Shown: one piece after another, positions 23,467-32,000 of the stretch | Layout of the letters: every line of letters begins with the position of its first letter | Position numbering within the stretch: position 1 is the stretch's first letter | Assembly (NCBI RefSeq): GCF_001735745.1 | Contig: NZ_CP017260.1 | Coordinates: 1,770,001 to 1,802,000, forward strand | Direction: 5' to 3' | Source of the DNA: Formosa sp. Hel1_33_131 | Lineage (GTDB): Bacteria; Bacteroidota; Bacteroidia; Flavobacteriales; Flavobacteriaceae | DNA: 32,000 bases | Notes under the pieces: model-generated | Told to the model about the DNA's origin: nothing | The model's database searches: none | What the model saw: only the letters and a program-made list of their open reading frames with translations | Position numbers and translations under genes: made by a program

Positions 23467-25986
23467 TTAAAACAGACCTAAATCGTCTGCGTTTGCTTCT
23501 GTTTCGTGTACTACTTCTGTGTTTTCTTCGATTTCGATTATTCCAGTTAATGTGTCTTGAGCATCATCAAAATCATTTGCACTAAATATTTTTTTATACT
23601 TGGTTACGTGTTTATAAAATACTGGCCATCTAATATGCCAATCACTAGGAAACACCACCTCATTATTCACACTTGCACTATTGCTATATATTCTAGCCTC
23701 CTTATTATTCGATTGATGAAACCAAAATATATTTACTCCTTTGTTTACAAGCTTCTCTAAATTTCTTGCAAATCCTCTACCGCCGCCATTACTTTCAATA
23801 TTGACTTTGTTGACATTATTTCGGTTTAACATTTTAGCAGTCAAAGGCTCTGTGATTTCCATTCCTTTTTGAGTGTACAATACATCAATCACATACTTGT
23901 GAGGATCTGTACTAGCCAATGGAACACCATACACAATGCTACATAGATAATCTTTGCCTGAATCTGCTGTATCAGTATAATTCTTAATAATTTTCAAGTC
24001 TGGTAAATCCTTGTAAGTTTTAAAATTATTACTATAAAGAAGCCCCTCTTTATTTTGCGGATTACCTTGATACAAACAATCAAACTTATCAGGGTCTTTT
24101 ACTCTTGAGCTTTCATGTTTTTTCTTGGAATGTTTATCTGGCCATAGCGCATCGCCTTCCTTTCTTGGGTCAAACTCTGATAGTTTACCTTCTTTTAAGG
24201 CTTGAAAATTTATAAGCAAAAACTTATCATCTAAATTCTTAATAACTTCTTCTAAGTCTTCGGTACCATCATAAACAACTACCAACCCTAATTCAATTAG
24301 TTTCGCAATAACATCTTGGTCACTCCAACGTGTAAATGTGATAAGCTGTTGAGAATCATTATGCAATCTTGAATCTGCTACTGTTAAATACCAATCCCAT
24401 ACAGACCTTTGAGTTACTGGCGAATTAGCATCTTTCCAGCCTTTGTATAGATCATCAAGAATTAATACATCAACAGTATCTCCAGTTAATGGACCATCTA
24501 CACCTACAAACTTCATAGAACCATCAGAATTGATAGATTCCCTTTCTATGTTGGTGTTAGATTTTGCGCCTGTATATCCTCTTTCAGGGTATTTGGTGTT
24601 AGGAAATATATCTTTATACTCCTTTTCACGCATTATGGTCATTATCTCTCTACCAAACTTCTGTGCCTTTGTTGCTGCATAACTAACTACTGCTATTTTA
24701 TCATCAGGTCTATATCCTGCTAAAAATGACGGTAATCTTCGAGTACTACCTTCACTATTATGAGTAGGAATTAAATTCCTACCCACCAAATAAACACCAC
24801 CTTCAACAGTAATACATTTGCCTTTTTTAGGTTTCACTTTTTCAATAGAAATAATACCTCGTTTTCTTTTTAAAGGATTTTTTAATATTATTTTCTTTCT
24901 GTCAATTGCCGTAGGTATTTCAATGTCTGGATTAAAAGATAATTGATAAACTTTATTTCTTCCAATAATTCCACTAGTGCTAACAATTGGTTCAAACTCG
25001 CATATTGTAGTTCTAAACCCTAGACTTACACAAATATCTTTCACATCATATATTAGCCTTTTGTTTATATTTGAAAACGTTACCCTTCCATTGTTTAGGT
25101 AAACGTATCCATCACTATCAATCAATCCCGCTAACAATTCTAGTCTATCATTTACTGTTGATAGTTTGTATTCTAAAGGAATGTGCTTAATATCTCCTTT
25201 TGGATGCGCAAAATTGATTTTTTTAAAAGATTGAAATGTATCTCCAAAAAATCTACTAGTTATTACACCTGTATCTTTATGAACTGAAAACGATGTTTTC
25301 TTATAGCCTAAAGAAATAATTTTATCAATTGATTTATAATCATCAAAATGATGTGTTATTGTTGGTGCCGAAACTTGACCATCTCCAAGCCATAGCCCTA
25401 AAAAATAGGGGTGTATTGTCAATTCCTTTTTATCAAATAAGACCAAATAATTTGAATCTACTTGAAATCTACATCTCTTTTTGAAAGTTCCTGAAAAATA
25501 TTTTTGCGAAAATAAATATTGTGTTTCGCATTTTATTTCTCTTCCTTTAGATCTATCAAAAACAACCCATTCATGTTGGGCATGACATTGTATTTTTTGC
25601 CCATCTGTAAAGGTTATTAAAAATTCACAATCTGGTTTATCGCTCTTGTTTAAAACATTTAACACTTTGGTTGGTTTTCCAAATCTATCAAAAACAAAAT
25701 CACCTCTTTTTAGATTTCCGTGCTGTTTAAATCCTTTTGTTGTTAAAACCAAGACAGAGTCAATAATTTTTTTCCCGTGTTGCGGTGGCATTGTTACTAT
25801 AAGGTTTTTTATTTCCTTATGTGCAAACCGATTTAATATGTCATAGAACGTTTTATGAAACCACTCGGGCTTAAACTTTTTAAATGTTGTTTGAGTGAAC
25901 TTGAATAAATCATCTTTACTATTATCTACATCTTCCTGGTATAGCAGTTGTTCAAGTTCATATATTTCTTCATTGCTCAGGCTCAT
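23467..25986 (-). CDS. terL: terminase large subunit, interrupted by an in-frame intein
   Basis: Extein sequence IVTMPPQHGK|SEGSTRRLPSF restores a P-loop (GKS). VDVLILDD is Walker B-like. The C-terminal half looks nuclease-like. 839 aa in total, of which 338 aa are intein. Confidence 0.85.
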   Translation of the reverse strand: MSLSNEEIYELEQLLYQEDVDNSKDDLFKFTQTTFKKFKPEWFHKTFYDILNRFAHKEIKNLIVTMPPQHGKKIIDSVLVLTTKGFKQHGNLKRGDFVFDRFGKPTKVLNVLNKSDKPDCEFLITFTDGQKIQCHAQHEWVVFDRSKGREIKCETQYLFSQKYFSGTFKKRCRFQVDSNYLVLFDKKELTIHPYFLGLWLGDGQVSAPTITHHFDDYKSIDKIISLGYKKTSFSVHKDTGVITSRFFGDTFQSFKKINFAHPKGDIKHIPLEYKLSTVNDRLELLAGLIDSDGYVYLNNGRVTFSNINKRLIYDVKDICVSLGFRTTICEFEPIVSTSGIIGRNKVYQLSFNPDIEIPTAIDRKKIILKNPLKRKRGIISIEKVKPKKGKCITVEGGVYLVGRNLIPTHNSEGSTRRLPSFLAGYRPDDKIAVVSYAATKAQKFGREIMTIMREKEYKDIFPNTKYPERGYTGAKSNTNIERESINSDGSMKFVGVDGPLTGDTVDVLILDDLYKGWKDANSPVTQRSVWDWYLTVADSRLHNDSQQLITFTRWSDQDVIAKLIELGLVVVYDGTEDLEEVIKNLDDKFLLINFQALKEGKLSEFDPRKEGDALWPDKHSKKKHESSRVKDPDKFDCLYQGNPQNKEGLLYSNNFKTYKDLPDLKIIKNYTDTADSGKDYLCSIVYGVPLASTDPHKYVIDVLYTQKGMEITEPLTAKMLNRNNVNKVNIESNGGGRGFARNLEKLVNKGVNIFWFHQSNNKEARIYSNSASVNNEVVFPSDWHIRWPVFYKHVTKYKKIFSANDFDDAQDTLTGIIEIEENTEVVHETEANADDLGLF
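24757..25770 (-). mobile_element. intein with LAGLIDADG homing endonuclease (class-3-type WCT signature)
   Basis: Residues K73..N410. Block A is KIIDSVLVLTTKG and block B is DGQKIQCHAQHEWVV. The LAGLIDADG motifs are YFLGLWLGDGQV and LLAGLIDSDGYVYL. Block F is KGKCITVEGGVYLVG and block G is NLIPTHN, followed by the +1 Ser. Confidence 0.8.
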
Positions 25987-26383
25987 TTGCTTTTTCTAAT
26001 AACTCTTTTAATCTTTTAGCTCTTTCCTCTTTTGTCATATCAGGAAACTGCGGTAGCTCAACTTCTAAAGATTGTTTAGGTTTGCCCTCAATTCTGTCTA
26101 AGACGATGTTAATCGCTCTTAAATCTCCATTCATAGCTTTTGACAATAAAGTAGTAGCCACAACCTCATTCAAAGTAGTTTCGCTTTCAATTTTACCTTT
26201 CTTGGTTTTTGTTTCACCACCTTTGGTAACTTTGATTTCATACTCCACGCTTTTAGCTTCGCCAAACTCTCTTAAAAATTCAGATATAGATTTGCCTTTC
26301 TTACCTCTGTTTTTAGGCTGATTGGTTGAGCTAAAACGAGTTGCTTTACCATCTTCTGCTAAATTTGGATTACCTTTTCCCAT
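25970..26383 (-). CDS. terS: terminase small subunit candidate
   Basis: 137-aa ORF that overlaps the terL start by 17 nt. The basic N-terminus (GKGNPNL...STNQPKNRGKKGK) resembles small-terminase N-termini. Assignment is mostly by position. Confidence 0.55.
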   Translation of the reverse strand: MGKGNPNLAEDGKATRFSSTNQPKNRGKKGKSISEFLREFGEAKSVEYEIKVTKGGETKTKKGKIESETTLNEVVATTLLSKAMNGDLRAINIVLDRIEGKPKQSLEVELPQFPDMTKEERAKRLKELLEKANEPEQ

Positions 26384-26438: not shown

Positions 26439-26654
26439 CTATTTATCGTCAGATTCGATAAGACCTTCAGCAATATCAATTATGTTTTCTAGCTCATCTT
26501 CTTTTGCTTTGAGCTCAACATATTGTTGCTTTTGGTTAGGAGAAGCTGCACTTTTGTTTACCAGGATTTCTATATCCTTGCGCTTTTCCTTATGACGGGA
26601 CAATCTACTTTTCAGTACTTCTAACAAAGCCATGATTTTATTTTTGTATTTCAT
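26439..26654 (-). CDS. hypothetical coiled-coil protein
   Basis: 71-aa charged helical ORF between the modification operon and terS. Confidence 0.4.
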   Translation of the reverse strand: MKYKNKIMALLEVLKSRLSRHKEKRKDIEILVNKSAASPNQKQQYVELKAKEDELENIIDIAEGLIESDDK

Positions 26655-26695: not shown

Positions 26696-27499
26696 TTAAT
26701 TCAATCTTTTAAACTCTCGTTCCTTTTTCTTCTTTCTAATACGATCTGTTTCTTCATTTAAGGAATCGCACTTCCACATCTGTTCCATGGAATAATAGAC
26801 AACTGTATATCTATATCCTTTGGGATGTGTTTTCTTTATAGGTGTTACACCATGTAATATTTCTTGACCATTGAATATTACAAGTGTATCATCTGCTATT
26901 TCTAATTTGATATCATATTCTGGAATGGATAGACGACCACCTTTTATGCCTTTCTTAAAGCAAACCATATTTGATAACACGCCTTTAAAGTTTCCTCTAT
27001 CGTGATGGTATTTTAGTGGATTGTCTTTATTTACGATTCCAGAGGTAAATACGCTGTTTTCGATTTTCCATTCTTCTTTGATACGCTCTTTGATAATCGC
27101 CTTATGCTTTTCGTAAGTTTCTGGAAAGTAATCGATGTAGATTTGCTCTAGGTCCTTTACAAAATTGGTAATGATGTAATGCTGTTTAGGAAATTCAGTT
27201 GCCATAAGTGCTGCATGACAGAAGTCTGCTAGAAGTACTCTACGAGGCATATATCCAAATACAGTTGAATGACTTACTAATCCTGCTGTTCTTTCATCCT
27301 TATTATATTTTACAGTATTTACAGCCCAACGTAGGGCAGATGTATCTACTTTGGTTTTACTATAATAAATTATTGGTTCGCCATTGTCTGTTATGATACA
27401 ATCTTCGTCTATAAGCATTGTACAGTCTTCTTCTAAAGCTGACCTACGCTTGTAGTCTTTTAAGTTGATTTCTCTTTTATGTGCCTCTATTGTTTTCAT
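26696..27499 (-). CDS. 2-oxoglutarate/Fe(II)-dependent dioxygenase, TET/JBP-like candidate
   Basis: The HxD...H triad and a distal Arg are present: FTSGIVNKDNPLKYHHDRGNF, LVIFNGQEILHGVTPI, GYRYTVVYYS. The gene overlaps the glycosyltransferase gene by 4 nt. Confidence 0.6.
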   Translation of the reverse strand: MKTIEAHKREINLKDYKRRSALEEDCTMLIDEDCIITDNGEPIIYYSKTKVDTSALRWAVNTVKYNKDERTAGLVSHSTVFGYMPRRVLLADFCHAALMATEFPKQHYIITNFVKDLEQIYIDYFPETYEKHKAIIKERIKEEWKIENSVFTSGIVNKDNPLKYHHDRGNFKGVLSNMVCFKKGIKGGRLSIPEYDIKLEIADDTLVIFNGQEILHGVTPIKKTHPKGYRYTVVYYSMEQMWKCDSLNEETDRIRKKKKEREFKRLN

Positions 27500-28191
27500 A
27501 GGAACTTATACCAATCTCTTTTTAGTAAAATTTCATTCTCTCGTTTAGGGTTTAAGGCTAAAGCGCCATTCCATTTTTTTAGTAAGTAGTTAACTGTTTC
27601 CTTTTCCAACTCATCATTTCTATAGGCTACTGCACCACCTTTATTTGAATAATGTTTAAAATCACAAATGATGTAATTATGCTTTGCTGTTCTACCATAC
27701 TTTTTTAAATACTGCAGAGTGAAATCGTAATCTTCCTTTAGTCTTAAATTATTATCATATCGAATTCCAGTGTTAGGCTTTGTCATTGTAAAATCGCCAA
27801 TAATAAACCCTGATGTGATTGTGTTTTTTTGATAGAACTTATTGAATACTGGACCTATTCCTGTGAGCTCCAATTCTGATGTAGAAAACCATTTGTAGAT
27901 GTAATCAATAACATCATGTATGTTGCCTTCTTGGCTTTTTATAAAACACTTTCCGCAGTCATCTGACAGCTGTAGTGTTATCTTGTTTTGCTCATCACCT
28001 AGTTGTAATGCTTTATTTCGAGAATCAATTAGACTACCACCTTCAATAACATTGATAAAACCTTGTTTTTTATAAGCTTCTTTTTCTCCTGTACCTACAA
28101 TGAAAGTCCAATCTTTGTTATAAGAATTTGGTATTTTATTAGCCCTACCAGAACTAATTACAGTTATCAGTATGTTATTTTCCTGCTTCAT
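27496..28191 (-). CDS. GT-A fold glycosyltransferase candidate
   Basis: N-terminal beta-strand ILITVISSGRANK, then GGSLIDSRNKALQLGDEQNKITLQLSDDC. This follows the family-2 pattern (G..ARN.g...a.....f.DDD) and includes a DxD-like SDD. Confidence 0.55.
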   Translation of the reverse strand: MKQENNILITVISSGRANKIPNSYNKDWTFIVGTGEKEAYKKQGFINVIEGGSLIDSRNKALQLGDEQNKITLQLSDDCGKCFIKSQEGNIHDVIDYIYKWFSTSELELTGIGPVFNKFYQKNTITSGFIIGDFTMTKPNTGIRYDNNLRLKEDYDFTLQYLKKYGRTAKHNYIICDFKHYSNKGGAVAYRNDELEKETVNYLLKKWNGALALNPKRENEILLKRDWYKFL

Positions 28192-28783
28192 ACTTCTCTA
28201 ACAGTTTTATAACTACTGAACTATTATCTTCTAGTCCTTCTTTTTCAGCTACTTTATGAAGTCTTTCTAAAATATCAGCATAAATATTTTGCTCATAGTA
28301 AAGTACTATTTGCTTGATGTTGTTGTTTTGATATCTTTCGAACTTTTCCTTTACAATGTTAGGATCTATTTCAGGTTCATGACCTATATCAAGACCTATC
28401 TCGAAATCTTCAAAACCAAAACTTTCTAATTCCGTTAATTCAAAATCGAGTTCTAATAGCTTATCAAAATCCCATTCGCCACGATGTAGGTTATCTTTAA
28501 CCATACGCTCATCTTGAACTTTGCTTGATACGTTTTCTTCAATGAAACATTTGACAGATGTTTTGCCTAGTTTTCTACAGGCTTTTATACGTTGTGTTCC
28601 CGCATAGCAATAATATTTACCATCCACTTTATTGATTAAAGGCGGTCTTTGAAGTAGAAATGCAGGATCCTTCTCTATATCATCGCAAAGCTTCTGTAGC
28701 TCATCTTCAGTTACAGTTCTTGGATTCTTATCTAAAAGAATTATTTCATCAATAGGAATTTCTATGTGATCTACTTTACTCAT
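28175..28783 (-). CDS. ParB N-terminal domain (ParB/sulfiredoxin-like) protein
   Basis: IPIDEIILLDKNPRTVTEDELQKLCDDIEKDP...YYCYAGTQRIKACRKLG matches the ParB-box layout. A DNLHRGEWD...ESFGF linker follows, of the kind seen in ParB-methyltransferase fusions. Confidence 0.7.
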   Translation of the reverse strand: MSKVDHIEIPIDEIILLDKNPRTVTEDELQKLCDDIEKDPAFLLQRPPLINKVDGKYYCYAGTQRIKACRKLGKTSVKCFIEENVSSKVQDERMVKDNLHRGEWDFDKLLELDFELTELESFGFEDFEIGLDIGHEPEIDPNIVKEKFERYQNNNIKQIVLYYEQNIYADILERLHKVAEKEGLEDNSSVVIKLLEKYEAGK

Positions 28784-29217
28784 GCTACAGCTTTAAATTT
28801 TTCTTTATAGGTTTCGATAATTTCTATTAAGGAGAATCTATCCCATTTAAATGAACTGCGTTTACTTATGTCTGCGAGCATATCAAGTTCTTCAACTCTT
28901 TTAAGTCCTATTTTCTTAATAAGGTTTTTTCGATATTGAAGTTGGTTACCGCCATTGAAGTAATTGTCTGATTTGCCTTGAAGATGTACATTATCTTCAT
29001 TGAATTTTAGTTGTGGAAATTTACCACCACTATAGAAGTGTCCTGCATGCGCATTGCTAGATGGCACTTGTAGAGGTTGACCACTAGAAATACATCTACC
29101 AAACCCATTAGCATCAGTATCACGATACCTAATGTATTTGTTGAAATGTGTGGTTGCTATTTTTAAAAGCTGAGATACAGATTTATCTCTATACTTCTGT
29201 ATAGTTTTAGAATCCAA
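28780..29217 (-). CDS. ninG: NinG/Rap-like structure-specific nuclease
   Basis: FNKYIRYRDTDANGFGRCISSG...AHAGHFYSGG...LKFNEDNVHLQGKSDNYFNGGN...YRKNLIKKIG matches the lambda NinG pattern. The start is TTG (29217..29215). There is no in-frame ATG between it and the upstream TAG at 29265..29263. Confidence 0.7.
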   Translation of the reverse strand: MDSKTIQKYRDKSVSQLLKIATTHFNKYIRYRDTDANGFGRCISSGQPLQVPSSNAHAGHFYSGGKFPQLKFNEDNVHLQGKSDNYFNGGNQLQYRKNLIKKIGLKRVEELDMLADISKRSSFKWDRFSLIEIIETYKEKFKAVA

Positions 29218-29317
29218 AGGAAAATCTAAATTAGGAATCTGTAATAGCTTGTTAGCTATGCCCTAAAAGGGACTTGAATCTATTGTACCTATGAGTATAG
29301 GGCTTTGAATCGATAAG

Positions 29318-29325
29318 CAAATATA
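29318..29325 (-). promoter_or_regulatory. Bacteroidota-type -7 box (TATATTTG) upstream of the ninG operon
   Basis: Exact TAnnTTTG on the minus strand, about 100 nt upstream of the ninG TTG start. No clear -33 TTG element. Confidence 0.3.
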
Positions 29326-29326
29326 G

Positions 29327-29539
29327 CTAAAATTCCTTGAAAAAAGAATAGATTATTGCTGAAATGAATGCAATTGCAATGACAGCAGTTGCTATGGCTA
29401 GTATCAATCGAGAATTATCAATAATACTTTCTAAAGGAGATATGGTAAAAGTCTTTCCGCAACCTTCACATAATGTTGGCTTTTCATAGCTAGGTTTCAT
29501 ACCTAGATTGATTTCGCATTTAGTACAGAACTCTGCCAT
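29327..29539 (-). CDS. zinc-ribbon protein with C-terminal TM anchor
   Basis: CTKC...CEGC (two CxxC pairs), followed by LILAIATAVIAIAFISAIIYSFF. Confidence 0.55.
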   Translation of the reverse strand: MAEFCTKCEINLGMKPSYEKPTLCEGCGKTFTISPLESIIDNSRLILAIATAVIAIAFISAIIYSFFKEF

Positions 29540-29595
29540 ATAAATATTTGAAAACTTAATATAGGTAATTTTAGATATTCACACATTTATTTGTG

Positions 29596-29603
29596 TAGAT
29601 TTG
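29596..29603 (+). promoter_or_regulatory. Bacteroidota-type -7 box (TAGATTTG) upstream of the PIN gene
   Basis: Exact TAnnTTTG 21 nt upstream of ATG 29624. It overlaps the right arm of the palindrome ACACA-TTTATT-TGTGT (29581..29596). Confidence 0.3.
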
Positions 29604-29623
29604 TTTTAATTTAATTATCCTAT

Positions 29624-30487
29624 ATGACATTCATAGATAAGCTAATAGCTCAAATTGATTTAGTTCAACCCATTGTAAATTTAATGCTTGATAATTCATC
29701 TATATTTTTTGATGAGTATAAGCAAAGGATTAATCCAAGATTAATAGTTGTTGGATTTAGCAAACATCGTTATAGCAGAAAAGATGAAAAGAATCAAATA
29801 AAAGCTAGACAGGAATTTGATAAGTTTTATAATAACTTTGAGTTGCTCTTGGATAAGGCTACTCCTAATAATTTGAAAAAAATTGATAAAGCCAAAACCA
29901 ATATTATAAATCTAATTGAGCAAACTAAAGTTCCTGTAAATATAGAATCAGGGAAAAATAATTTTTTAAAATACACTAAGGTTTTTAAAGAGTTTCTAGA
30001 ACTTTTACAAGATGAAGAAACTGCAACAATGATTATCCCTGACACTAATTCTATAATACAATACCCTGATCCAATTAGTTATAAAAATATTGCTAATTCA
30101 AGTGAGTTTGATTTTGTAATTCTACCAACTGTATTATCTGAATTAGATAAGCTTAAAATTTCTCACAGAAATGAAGATTTTCGTAAAAAGGTAAAGTCAG
30201 TTATAAAGAGGCTTAAAGGTTATAGAAAACAAGGAGATGTCCTAAAGGGCGTGACTGTAAATAAAACAGTCACTTTAAAAATGATAGCTACAGAACCTAA
30301 TTTTGAAAAAACATTGAATTGGCTAGATCCAAATAATAATGATGATAGAATAATTGCTAATGCTCTTGAATTGCAGATTAATAAACCATCAAACAATTTA
30401 ATATTTGTCTCTTCTGATATGAATTTTCAAAATAAAGCTCAACTAGCCAACTTGACGATATTTGACACCGATGATTTAAATAGTTAG
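29624..30487 (+). CDS. PIN-domain nuclease with an uncharacterised ~140-aa N-terminal domain
   Basis: Four acidic PIN positions in the right order: MIIPDTNSII, ILPTVLSELDKLK, NNNDDRIIANALEL, IFVSSDMNFQNKA. The pattern resembles the PhoH2/YlaK-type PIN. Confidence 0.65.
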   Translation: MTFIDKLIAQIDLVQPIVNLMLDNSSIFFDEYKQRINPRLIVVGFSKHRYSRKDEKNQIKARQEFDKFYNNFELLLDKATPNNLKKIDKAKTNIINLIEQTKVPVNIESGKNNFLKYTKVFKEFLELLQDEETATMIIPDTNSIIQYPDPISYKNIANSSEFDFVILPTVLSELDKLKISHRNEDFRKKVKSVIKRLKGYRKQGDVLKGVTVNKTVTLKMIATEPNFEKTLNWLDPNNNDDRIIANALELQINKPSNNLIFVSSDMNFQNKAQLANLTIFDTDDLNS

Positions 30488-31255
30488 GCATTCTATTTCA
30501 TTAAAGAATTCATTTATATCAGTAATGTGTGACAAATCAATTTCGTTTTTATAATGATTATCCTCTGTCAATTTCTCTATTACTATTATTTTAGTGTAAA
30601 TTTTCGTTCCTGCTCTTTCAAAAACTACTGATGGCAATGATATTTCAGTTGATAAATAGAACTCTCTATTCTTTTTATCTTCAAAGAAAGCATCTAACCT
30701 TTTCTGCATTGCAGTACCATTAGGAATGATAGCTATTAATTTTGAATTTTGATGATAAGATAAATGCTTTGTAGCTTTTTCAATGTGCTGCATAGCTGTT
30801 TTTCCGCTTTTACCAAAAGGAGGATTCATTGCAATTCCTTCATACTTATTCCAAATAGTATGATTTTCAAACTGTTCAATTTTCACTTCACCATTTGCAT
30901 TGATAGATAGTTTAGATGATAACTCGTAGCTTGGTTCAATAAATGTGTTATTTGTGTTTTCAGGAAAAAACCTACCTATGGCACCATGCCCTGCACTTGG
31001 TTCTAATGCTCTTTCTCCTGGTTGAAGATTTAACCATTCAACCATTTTAAGTCCTAATGGTTCAGGAGTAGCATAATAATCAAAGCCTTCTCTTGATTTG
31101 TTTTTTGATGTTTTCTTACCTGTGCCGAAATAGTATGTTTTTGCTTTTTCAAACTCTGTAATAACTTCTGCATTAGCTTCTGCTAAATGTATTCCTGTTG
31201 TGGTACCACCTGCACCGCAAAATAAATCTATCCAGTATATTGTTGGTTCGTTCAT
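30476..31255 (-). CDS. N6-adenine DNA methyltransferase (gamma-type motif order) carrying a C5-cytosine-methyltransferase motif I at its N-terminus
   Basis: Residues 1-32 (IYWIDLFCGAGGTTTGIHLAEANAEVI) give the Dcm-type FxGxGG motif I. The remainder has DYYATPEPL, ALEPSAGHGAIG (its own motif I) and AMNPPFGKSG (motif IV, NPPF). Confidence 0.7.
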   Translation of the reverse strand: MNEPTIYWIDLFCGAGGTTTGIHLAEANAEVITEFEKAKTYYFGTGKKTSKNKSREGFDYYATPEPLGLKMVEWLNLQPGERALEPSAGHGAIGRFFPENTNNTFIEPSYELSSKLSINANGEVKIEQFENHTIWNKYEGIAMNPPFGKSGKTAMQHIEKATKHLSYHQNSKLIAIIPNGTAMQKRLDAFFEDKKNREFYLSTEISLPSVVFERAGTKIYTKIIVIEKLTEDNHYKNEIDLSHITDINEFFNEIECLTI

Positions 31256-31257
31256 AA

Positions 31258-32000
31258 TTAAACTGCTGTTTTTTCCAATACGTCAAATAATGTCGGCATT
31301 GTCATTTCGTTATTAATTGCCTTCACATAGAAAAGCCCGTCTTTGTAGTATTCTGTTTTTAATTCGCAAACAATAGCCTTGCGTTTCATTTTTAGAGATT
31401 GATAAGCTGTTGAGAATAAACCACCGAAAGGATCTGCTACTATATCTCCTTCATTTGAAAAGCGATTGATTATTCTTTCCAAAATATCTAACTGCAGAGG
31501 GCAAATGTGTTTCTCTTTTTTACTAGATACTTGCTTTGCATTTAGTGTTTTTGTTCTTGAGATATCATCCCAAACAAATTCGCTATTAGATACAGGCGGA
31601 ACGGTCATATATTTTCGACTTAATTTTCCATTTTCATCTAATGCCTTTGACAAATCTTTATGCAACTGAAAATCGTATAAGCCTTCTTTTTGGTATTGTT
31701 TCCAAACTTTATGAACTTGCTTCATGTTATGTTTTAGAAGTTCTGAAATTGACATCAATTTATTACCTGATGATTTCCAATAAGCATGCGCATCTAGTTG
31801 CCATAAATCAACTGAATAACCTTCTTTTGTTTTGGTTACAGGCTCATCAGCATAAGCATTATTCATATGCGTTGGTGGTTTTCTAAATAGCAAAACATAT
31901 TCAGGTAAACCAACTCCCATTTTTGTAGCATCCTTGCATTGTTCGCTCCAACCTAATCTGTATGTTTGATTATTTTCTGCAACAACATCGGTAGTAACTG
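31258..32000 (-). CDS. beta-class N4/N6 DNA methyltransferase, C-terminal part (5' end outside the window)
   Basis: KHICPLQLDILERIINRFSNEGDIVADPFGGLFSTAYQS is the C-terminal SAM-binding motif I region of N6_N4-type enzymes. The frame stays open from the track's ATG (31920) to the window edge (…VTTDVVAENNQTYRLGWSEQCKDATK-MGVGLPEYVLLFRKPP). Confidence 0.7.
   Translation of the reverse strand, partial: VTTDVVAENNQTYRLGWSEQCKDATKMGVGLPEYVLLFRKPPTHMNNAYADEPVTKTKEGYSVDLWQLDAHAYWKSSGNKLMSISELLKHNMKQVHKVWKQYQKEGLYDFQLHKDLSKALDENGKLSRKYMTVPPVSNSEFVWDDISRTKTLNAKQVSSKKEKHICPLQLDILERIINRFSNEGDIVADPFGGLFSTAYQSLKMKRKAIVCELKTEYYKDGLFYVKAINNEMTMPTLFDVLEKTAV

Follow-up and report, generated by a model that had tools for sequence, protein, structure and literature searches.

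A ParB-linked cassette predicted to hypermodify thymine in a Formosa sp. Hel1_33_131 prophage

The DNA analysed here, hereafter the window, is a stretch of 32,000 nucleotides from the marine flavobacterium Formosa sp. Hel1_33_131 (contig NZ_CP017260.1, positions 1,770,001 to 1,802,000), and its subject is a minus-strand island, part of a prophage, in which genes for a ParB-like protein, a glycosyltransferase (GT) and a dioxygenase of the TET/JBP family follow one another. A first-pass annotation, made from the letters alone, had described four translationally coupled minus-strand genes and read them as a putative island for DNA base hypermodification with the logic of base J synthesis and of phage TET systems. 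A six-frame list of open reading frames (ORFs) confirmed all four genes and their overlaps, which are 4 nt for NinG/ParB, 17 nt for ParB/GT and 4 nt for GT/dioxygenase. The core is a three-gene, translationally coupled cassette that encodes the ParB, a TAGT glycosyltransferase and a 5mYOX (TET/JBP) dioxygenase; the GT is 100% identical to FORMB_17050 of this strain, and the ParB is 100% identical to FORMB_17060. In the order of their coordinates, the four genes are:

26696..27499, minus strand: 5mYOX (TET/JBP) dioxygenase of 267 amino acids (aa), predicted to be a ParB-dependent thymine dioxygenase (Pfam Tet_JBP).
27496..28191, minus strand: TAGT-type GT-A glycosyltransferase, 231 aa, predicted to add a sugar to the hydroxymethyl base that the dioxygenase produces (AlphaFold2, Foldseek, TAGT).
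28175..28783, minus strand: short ParB-like protein, 202 aa, predicted to activate the dioxygenase as its cognate partner (PHROG ParB, Foldseek).
28780..29217, minus strand: NinG/Rap-like structure-specific endonuclease, 145 aa, with a TTG start (Pfam NinG).

The dioxygenase, which consists of the oxygenase domain alone, had Pfam Tet_JBP (PF12851) as its best match (51 bits, E 1.2e-13; gathering cut-off 34.9), rather than any family of protein or small-molecule oxygenases. Searches found 1189 homologs in metagenomic data, and among the matches listed PF12851 was present in 120 out of 120. This supports assignment to the nucleic-acid TET/JBP family, and not to the protein or small-molecule oxygenases. 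The motifs pointed out in the first-pass annotation, KYHHDRGNF (H165 and D167), ILHGVTPI (H216) and RYTVVYY (R230), are all present, and the HxD...H...R set that they supply proved invariant in an alignment of 32 homologs, as did C244 and the residues E250, R253, R255, K258, E262 and R265. The latter six belong to a conserved basic tail of 23 aa after C244, which may correspond to the extension that follows C280 in 5mYOX176; alignments with TET-like proteins of actinophages end at residue 244. Compared with PDB chains, a TET-family sequence profile yielded only weak matches, to CMD1 and CcTet (E 0.03–0.4).

For the GT, the score against Pfam TAGT (PF20691) was 23.6 bits, just under the gathering cut-off of 27.5, while 48 of its 57 aligned homologs matched TAGT at E <= 0.001 (best 1.6e-12). 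The AlphaFold2 model is of high confidence (predicted local distance difference test, pLDDT, 94.1; predicted template modelling score, pTM, 0.90) and has a GT-A fold, as the short motifs had led the first-pass annotation to expect, and its best match in BFVD was a TET-associated glycosyltransferase (E 2e-17, template modelling score, TM, 0.87, root-mean-square deviation, rmsd, 2.1). The motifs themselves, SRNKAL (R58 and N59) and LSDD (D77 and D78), are in place, with R16, R58, N59, D77, D78, E153, D154 and Y155 invariant in the 57 homologs. Among these, R16/R58, D77-D78 and E153-D154-Y155 correspond to the R...DDD...EDY/F motifs described by Pyle et al. (10.1101/2023.12.21.572611) for phage GT-A DNA glycosyltransferases and for the JGT of trypanosomes. 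We thus predict that the protein is a DNA glycosyltransferase of the TAGT type. Together, the Tet_JBP profile match and the GT-A fold support the reading of the locus as a hypermodification island.

The same structural comparison calls up a different role for the GT, in lysogenic conversion. The solved structures most similar to the model are TarS, TarP and WrtF, all GT-A: the first two are enzymes of wall teichoic acid, with TarP encoded by a prophage as is the GT here, and WrtF is a fucosyltransferase. The GT could, like TarP, be a non-DNA enzyme that acts on a surface polymer of the host, with the dioxygenase alone making 5-hydroxymethyluracil (5hmU) or acting elsewhere. However, the TM to TarS and TarP is 0.44–0.49 as against 0.87 to the viral TAGT protein, and TarP is also the top PDB match of GT-A enzymes that have been proven to glycosylate DNA (10.1101/2023.12.21.572611). 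Moreover, the GT has neither a signal peptide nor a membrane segment within its 231 aa, and its gene is coupled to those for ParB and TET, in an arrangement found in 57 of 70 loci (see below). We regard a surface-polymer enzyme as extremely unlikely.

The ParB-like protein matched ParB families of PHROG (2e-15) and, weakly, Pfam ParB_N. In its model (pLDDT 81.7), a ParB/Srx nucleotide-binding domain (NBD) from residue 1 to ~105, with values above 90, gives way to an acidic linker that is disordered, after which comes a three-helix C-terminal domain (CTD; aa ~136–202), here called type A. The top Foldseek matches were Myxococcus xanthus ParB with CTPgammaS (7bnr; also with CDP), Bacillus subtilis ParB with CDP (6sdk), Noc, KorB and Caulobacter crescentus ParB, and the protein superposes on ParB structures over ~100 residues only, with an rmsd of 2.9 A. 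The motifs NPR, GTQR (box II) and DNLHR are conserved. No helix-turn-helix (HTH) DNA-binding domain was seen in the model or in the Foldseek superpositions, and no ParA homolog is annotated beside ParB in the region of the window or in the related loci that were read. A canonical partition ParB, in contrast, has a central HTH that binds parS and works with a ParA partner.

We then looked at how constant the association of these genes is. Scanning IMG/VR with the single TET sequence gave no match, whereas an alignment-based scan gave 80 loci, with TET homologs 52–60% identical to that of the window; together with six closer loci obtained by exact-protein look-ups, they make up 86 TET-bearing loci, of which the 71 with at least 1.5 kb of sequence upstream of TET were taken as informative. 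A ParB homolog lies upstream of TET on the same strand in all 71, at a median gap of ~0.7 kb, or one gene, and after two rounds of profile searching that intervening gene was TAGT-like in 57 of 70 loci. The exceptions carry other enzymes in the slot: a glutamine amidotransferase (GATase) together with AADT (amino acid:DNA transferase; PF18724, 72 bits) in L087, and P-loop kinases in L058, L088 and L093, with TETs in these sister loci 52–57% identical to ours; the remainder have different GT-like proteins or an extra nucleotidyltransferase. AADT, GATase and P-loop kinases are known machinery of thymidine hypermodification (PMC13229309).

The invariable linkage to TET contrasts with what was found for NinG. 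The 145-aa protein is a clear member of its family (Pfam NinG, PF05766; 4e-24, 85.9 bits, cut-off 25.4), and its gene sits immediately before parB in three close relatives (L120, L121 and L122), but NinG adjoins ParB in only ~6 of the 71 IMG/VR loci. It is probably the last gene of a recombination module, and so a neighbour outside the modification pathway rather than the partner that the first-pass annotation had taken it for.

For ParB, whose role that annotation had left unexplained, a function as cognate activator is provided by the literature. Phage 5mYOX enzymes that lack a neighbouring C5-cytosine methyltransferase (C5-MT) are thymine dioxygenases (O'Toole et al., PNAS 2026, PMC13229309), and one subclass of them is co-encoded with a short ParB made of an NBD and a CTD, with no DNA-binding domain, and requires this cognate ParB for conversion of thymine to 5hmU on double-stranded DNA (PMC13229309). 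The same subclass has a C-terminal extension after its last conserved Cys, and its links are chiefly to genes for GATases, kinases and AADTs, while GTs are tied to a ParB-independent clade (PMC13229309). Over the mined pathways as a whole, the most frequent neighbours are GTs (31%), ParBs (27%), terminases (19%) and endonucleases (17%), and a C5-MT is present in only 6% of pathways (PMC13229309). The sequence contexts favoured by the published enzymes are NTR or YTY.

Three substrates had been proposed in the first-pass annotation, namely thymine, a methylated base made by a gene outside the window, or something not yet described, and thymine is the best supported of them, because no intact C5-MT was detected nearby in the 86 loci and because the sister slots hold genes for thymidine hypermodification. 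A motif scan and tblastn with a PF00145 protein detected no intact C5-MT within 10 kb on either side of TET in any of the 86 loci. The cassette thus probably encodes a ParB-dependent thymine dioxygenase and a glycosyltransferase that convert thymine to 5hmU and then to glycosyl-5hmU. After replication, the Fe(II)/2-oxoglutarate dioxygenase would hydroxylate thymine of the double-stranded phage DNA at its C5-methyl group, yielding 5hmU; this hydroxylation of double-stranded DNA would need the adjacent short ParB, with its NBD, its partner-specific CTD and no HTH; and the GT-A enzyme would then glycosylate the newly formed hydroxyl, with a nucleotide-sugar as donor. The resulting base-J-like glycosyl-5hmU would shield phage DNA from host nucleases. 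That this particular enzyme uses thymine and that the GT acts on 5hmU we infer from characterised relatives of the class, and the same holds for which sugar is added and what the modification does for the phage.

The methyltransferase genes upstream of the cassette bear on a second possible substrate, 5-methylcytosine (5mC). They are:

30476..31255, minus strand: chimeric methyltransferase, 259 aa (PHROG 10691, 1e-93).
31160..31255, minus strand: C5-MT stub with motif I, DLFCGAGG (tblastn, 74% identity over 27 aa).
31258..32000, minus strand: C-terminal ~247 aa of an SNF2-helicase/N6_N4 DNA methyltransferase that begins beyond the window (Pfam N6_N4_Mtase, 58.8 bits).

Both of the methyltransferases that the first-pass annotation had placed upstream exist, but of the second, a larger protein, the window holds just the C-terminal portion: its ORF (31258 to 32000) has no upstream stop up to the window edge, and its full-length homologs are of ~830 aa, with SNF2 and N6_N4_Mtase domains. 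The absence of an intact C5-MT also held, as tblastn of the window with a genuine PF00145 C5-MT gave a single match, 31240-31160, of 27 aa at 74% identity, within the 32-aa remnant noted before. This stub matches the N-terminus of the PF00145 C5-MT gp028 of Cellulophaga phage phi17:2 (E 3e-8), lacks motifs IV-X and is fused to an N6-adenine methyltransferase module. Residues ~30–259 of the chimeric protein form that module, which is DarB-like and complete (ExSAGxG, NPPF), and shares 46% identity with an internal stretch of a Vibrio phage protein of 3292 aa, the homology starting at ~aa 30. We considered whether the first 32 aa might be native to the DarB-like module and rejected this, since they are not shared by the Vibrio phage homolog, in keeping with the chimeric nature first proposed for the gene. 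In L001 and L004, the DarB-like module is fused to a helicase (838–843 aa). The junction, near 31160-31170, is an in-frame module swap: the DarB-like module is now driven by the translation start and first ~30 codons of the C5-MT, which are coupled to the stop of the preceding methyltransferase gene.

Three Flavobacterium genomes (L009, L012 and L014) have an SNF2-N6/N4 methyltransferase gene directly followed, where the window has the chimeric gene, by a full C5-MT gene, its product of 571 aa in L009 being PF00145 by Pfam, and have no TET cassette. The stub is therefore the relic of such an orphan-methylase pair, the C5-MT body having given way to an adenine-methyltransferase module. We also considered the stub as a sign that TET had lost a methylase partner, and rejected this because the same intact pair occurs in these genomes without TET.

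The dioxygenase might nonetheless act on 5mC made by a C5-MT outside the window, of phage or host origin, with glycosyl-5-hydroxymethylcytosine as the product. The stub does show that an ancestor of this element carried a C5-MT 3.7 kb upstream, and 5-hydroxymethylcytosine (5hmC) is the base on which experiments have so far demonstrated the action of TAGT/GT-A enzymes. However, the characterised phage TETs of the 5mC type adjoin a C5-MT, which in the 86 loci is not found within 10 kb; the C5-MT of this element has been destroyed while ParB, GT and TET are still intact and constrained; the C5-MT module also stands beside the SNF2-N6/N4 methyltransferase in genomes that have no TET; and the AADT and kinase genes of the sister loci are specific for thymidine hypermodification. 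Oxidation of 5mC in the native setting thus appears rather unlikely, though by no means as improbable as a surface-polymer role for the GT.

Several points weigh against thymine conversion by a ParB-dependent enzyme with a GT partner. Two of them also favour 5mC as the substrate: characterised thymine dioxygenases oxidise 5mC as well in vitro, and TET89 has dual activity (PMC13229309), and L004, whose TET is 80% identical and which has the same cassette, carries a 538-aa PF00145 methylase ~10 kb upstream, the last 113 nt of its gene reaching the edge of the 10-kb upstream flank. The window itself ends 4.5 kb upstream of TET, and a C5-MT may lie elsewhere in the prophage or the host. Exact-protein look-ups gave no record for the chimeric methyltransferase or the PIN protein, and only short metagenomic contigs for the GT and ParB. 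The pairing of a ParB-dependent enzyme with a GT is less well precedented, because the published GT links are to the ParB-independent clade (PMC13229309), and a limited literature search turned up no paper in which a phage makes glycosyl-5hmU. Many ParB-dependent homologs gave less than 5% 5hmU in Escherichia coli (PMC13229309). Moreover, CTP hydrolysis by this ParB looks doubtful because its box II is GTQR and not GERR, and the likely placement of the cassette in the published ParB-linked clade C1 (5mYOX176/ParB176) comes from context and described features, not from phylogeny.

We next asked whether the cassette is functional. All three ORFs (ParB, GT and TET) are intact, with every catalytic residue conserved, and identical cassette genes are present in an independent environmental assembly (contig L006). 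Relative to the L004 ortholog, the ratio of nonsynonymous to synonymous divergence (dN/dS, NG86) is 0.04 for ParB; for TET and GT only dN (0.13) is given, because synonymous sites are saturated. On the other hand, a phage from an ENA metagenome that is 94–96% identical (L120) has a 1100-bp deletion between two copies of an 8-nt sequence, which in the window lie at:

28036..28043, minus strand: AAGGTGGT microhomology in the GT gene, at the left breakpoint of the L120 deletion.
26936..26943, minus strand: AAGGTGGT microhomology in the dioxygenase gene, at the right breakpoint of the L120 deletion.

The deletion joins aa 1–52 of the GT in frame to aa 189–267 of TET as a 131-aa ORF (L120:1154-1549), removing the catalytic cores of both enzymes and leaving NinG, ParB and the packaging genes intact. 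L120 is a natural loss-of-function variant of the cassette. Given this deletion together with purifying selection elsewhere, the modification module is under selection where present, yet dispensable, as expected of an accessory anti-defence function.

The L120 variant, which keeps ParB, NinG and the packaging genes after losing the GT and TET cores, could also be taken to mean that the whole cassette is a decaying or dispensable remnant that makes no modification, its ParB serving packaging or partition independently of TET. Homologous ParB NBDs do occur without TET, and the low activity in E. coli of many tested homologs (PMC13229309) would agree with this. Against it stand the three intact ORFs with all their catalytic residues, the strong purifying selection and the identical copy in an independent assembly. 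In addition, the CTD type of ParB tracks its TET partner in 73 of 74 loci, and the protein, as noted, has no HTH and no ParA homolog annotated in the related loci read. Decay with loss of function is therefore very unlikely for the copy in the window, and a functional cassette for thymine hypermodification is still the reading that we favour.

Downstream of the dioxygenase, the minus strand goes on with a 71-aa ORF, then genes for a DUF5681 protein, placed where a small terminase (TerS) is expected, and for an 839-aa large terminase (TerL), which makes the cassette the final unit ahead of the packaging genes:

26439..26654, minus strand: conserved 71-aa protein (p71) of no family, in the position before the small terminase.
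25970..26383, minus strand: DUF5681 protein, 137 aa, in the small-terminase position (Pfam DUF5681, 28.9 bits; TerL is next in all relatives).
23467..25986, minus strand: large terminase, 839 aa, with a LAGLIDADG intein; downstream boundary of the cassette (Pfam).

For p71, scans of Pfam and PHROG gave no family match. It probably forms a coiled-coil, its homologs occupy the same position in L001–L006 and in 16 of 19 tabulated ParB loci, and in nearly all related loci it lies directly before the small terminase regardless of which modification enzymes precede it. It may be part of the packaging machinery, or a link between modification and packaging. In the large terminase, Pfam places LAGLIDADG_3 and Hom_end at aa 281–330 and the Terminase-T7 RNaseH-like domain at aa 672–769; the intein is of ~335 aa, and the intein-free orthologs in L004, L120 and L121 have 495–505 aa.

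Among these marine phages, the position just before p71, TerS and TerL also turned out to be a swappable slot. In L121–L141, related ParBs whose NBD and linker are almost the same, but whose CTD differs, head other sets of enzymes before p71-TerS-TerL. ParBs with the type A CTD are found with TAGT and TET, with a kinase and TET, or with AADT and TET, and 73 of 74 TET-linked ParBs have this type, as does that of the window. With the type B CTD, the partner is an adenine modifier of the Mom family (PF25680, 133 bits) in ten loci (e.g. L123:6001-7178), and with type C it is an ABC-like ATPase accompanied by a GNAT protein and a Formyl_trans_N protein (e.g. L121:5642-7989). In four further cases, an N6/N4 methyltransferase is fused directly to ParB. 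We found no paper describing the pairing of ParB with Mom in our literature search, and the ATPase/GNAT/Fmt-like set has no described function in DNA modification. One locus (L137:2519-4136) encodes a 256-aa ParB, a strong TAGT (135 bits) and p71-TerS with no TET between; there, either the hydroxymethyl base is supplied from elsewhere or the acceptor of the GT differs.

That the CTD changes with the partner, and that type A accompanies TET in 73 of 74 cases, suggests that the CTD is a partner-specific adaptor and that one ParB chassis serves several unrelated DNA modifications. Going further, we would raise, as a tentative idea that is well short of probable, that ParB-like proteins are general modular adaptors for post-replicative DNA modification and that the cassette is the counterpart of base J in bacterial viruses. 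If true, ParB-dependent activation, perhaps coupled to packaging, would also cover DNA modifications of unrelated chemistry, and a modification not yet described may be the work of the ATPase/GNAT/Fmt-like set. A ParB chassis that serves other modification enzymes would also broaden the concept of ParB as an activator.

On the upstream side, between NinG and the methyltransferases, lie two further genes, one of them on the opposite strand:

29624..30487, plus strand: PIN_4-domain protein, 287 aa, a moron-like insert outside the cassette (Pfam PIN_4, 5.8e-18).
29327..29539, minus strand: 70-aa protein in which CxxC...CxxC precedes a hydrophobic tail (ORF list).

Neither is present in the relatives L001 and L004, and they are possibly morons or a defence or anti-defence insert. 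We count the PIN protein and both adenine/N4-type methyltransferases as neighbours of the modification pathway and not as components of it. A scan for sigma-70 promoters and terminators gave no more than expected from shuffled sequence, the sigma-70 model being ill-suited to Bacteroidota.

Knowledge of ParB-dependent thymine dioxygenases is drawn mostly from the expression of metagenomic genes in E. coli, and a native, cultivated host would help for that reason. The locus described here adds such a host, a TAGT partner within a ParB-linked cassette, a natural deletion variant and a modular slot. If the prophage is inducible, the chemistry of the product, the native role of ParB and a comparison with the deletion variant all become testable. 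To our knowledge, glycosylated, base-J-like 5hmU has not been shown for any phage.

Systems of this type have already been described, with TET and GT clusters reported in 2021–2024 and ParB-dependent thymine dioxygenases in 2025–2026. The original TAGT/ParB prediction goes back to Iyer et al. (2013). Among actinophages, the ParB-like gp1 and TET-like gp2 of cluster B mycobacteriophages such as Acadian and Cooper form an adjoining pair, at the left genome end, similar to the ParB and TET of the window, and the TET genes of actinophages (cluster B, and Gordonia, Arthrobacter and Microbacterium phages) encode proteins 27–33% identical to the window dioxygenase. Unlike this pair, which has no GT in cluster B, that of the window has the GT between ParB and TET. 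The TET-like gene 2 of many actinophages is labelled 'queuine tRNA-ribosyltransferase' or 'DpdA-like' (RefSeq, PHROG 6059; e.g. NC_023701.1 807-1556). This looks like a propagated mis-annotation, as the family matches Tet_JBP and one record says thymidine hydroxylase.

The clusters of clades A and B (Burke 2021, PMC8256090; Pyle et al., 10.1101/2023.12.21.572611) resemble the cassette in several respects: oxidation by TET after replication is followed by a GT-A enzyme (TAGT-like, JGT-like) with R...DD...EDY, TarP is the top PDB match, and the genes lie near those for packaging. They differ in that an adjacent GpC-specific C5-MT is present and the enzymes act on 5mC, whereas the window holds only a C5-MT stub of 27–32 aa and the subfamily has no C5-MT within 10 kb. 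With base J, made in kinetoplastids by JBP1/2 and JGT, the cassette would share its two steps, the first by a thymine hydroxylase of the TET/JBP family and the second by a GT-A glucosyltransferase whose target is 5hmU in DNA; unlike JBP1/2, the phage enzyme has no J-binding or SWI2/SNF2 domain and would use a ParB-like activator instead.

The closest likeness is to clade C1 (5mYOX176/ParB176, PMC13229309). Both have an adjacent short ParB of NBD and CTD without a DNA-binding domain, no neighbouring C5-MT, a place beside terminase genes, and a subfamily tied to AADT, GATase and P-loop kinase; the structural matches of the window ParB also include the ParBs of M. xanthus and C. crescentus, those named as closest in that study (PMC13229309). 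What sets the cassette of Formosa sp. Hel1_33_131 apart from clade C1 is the TAGT glycosyltransferase between ParB and the dioxygenase, together with its marine flavobacterial host and its location in a prophage.

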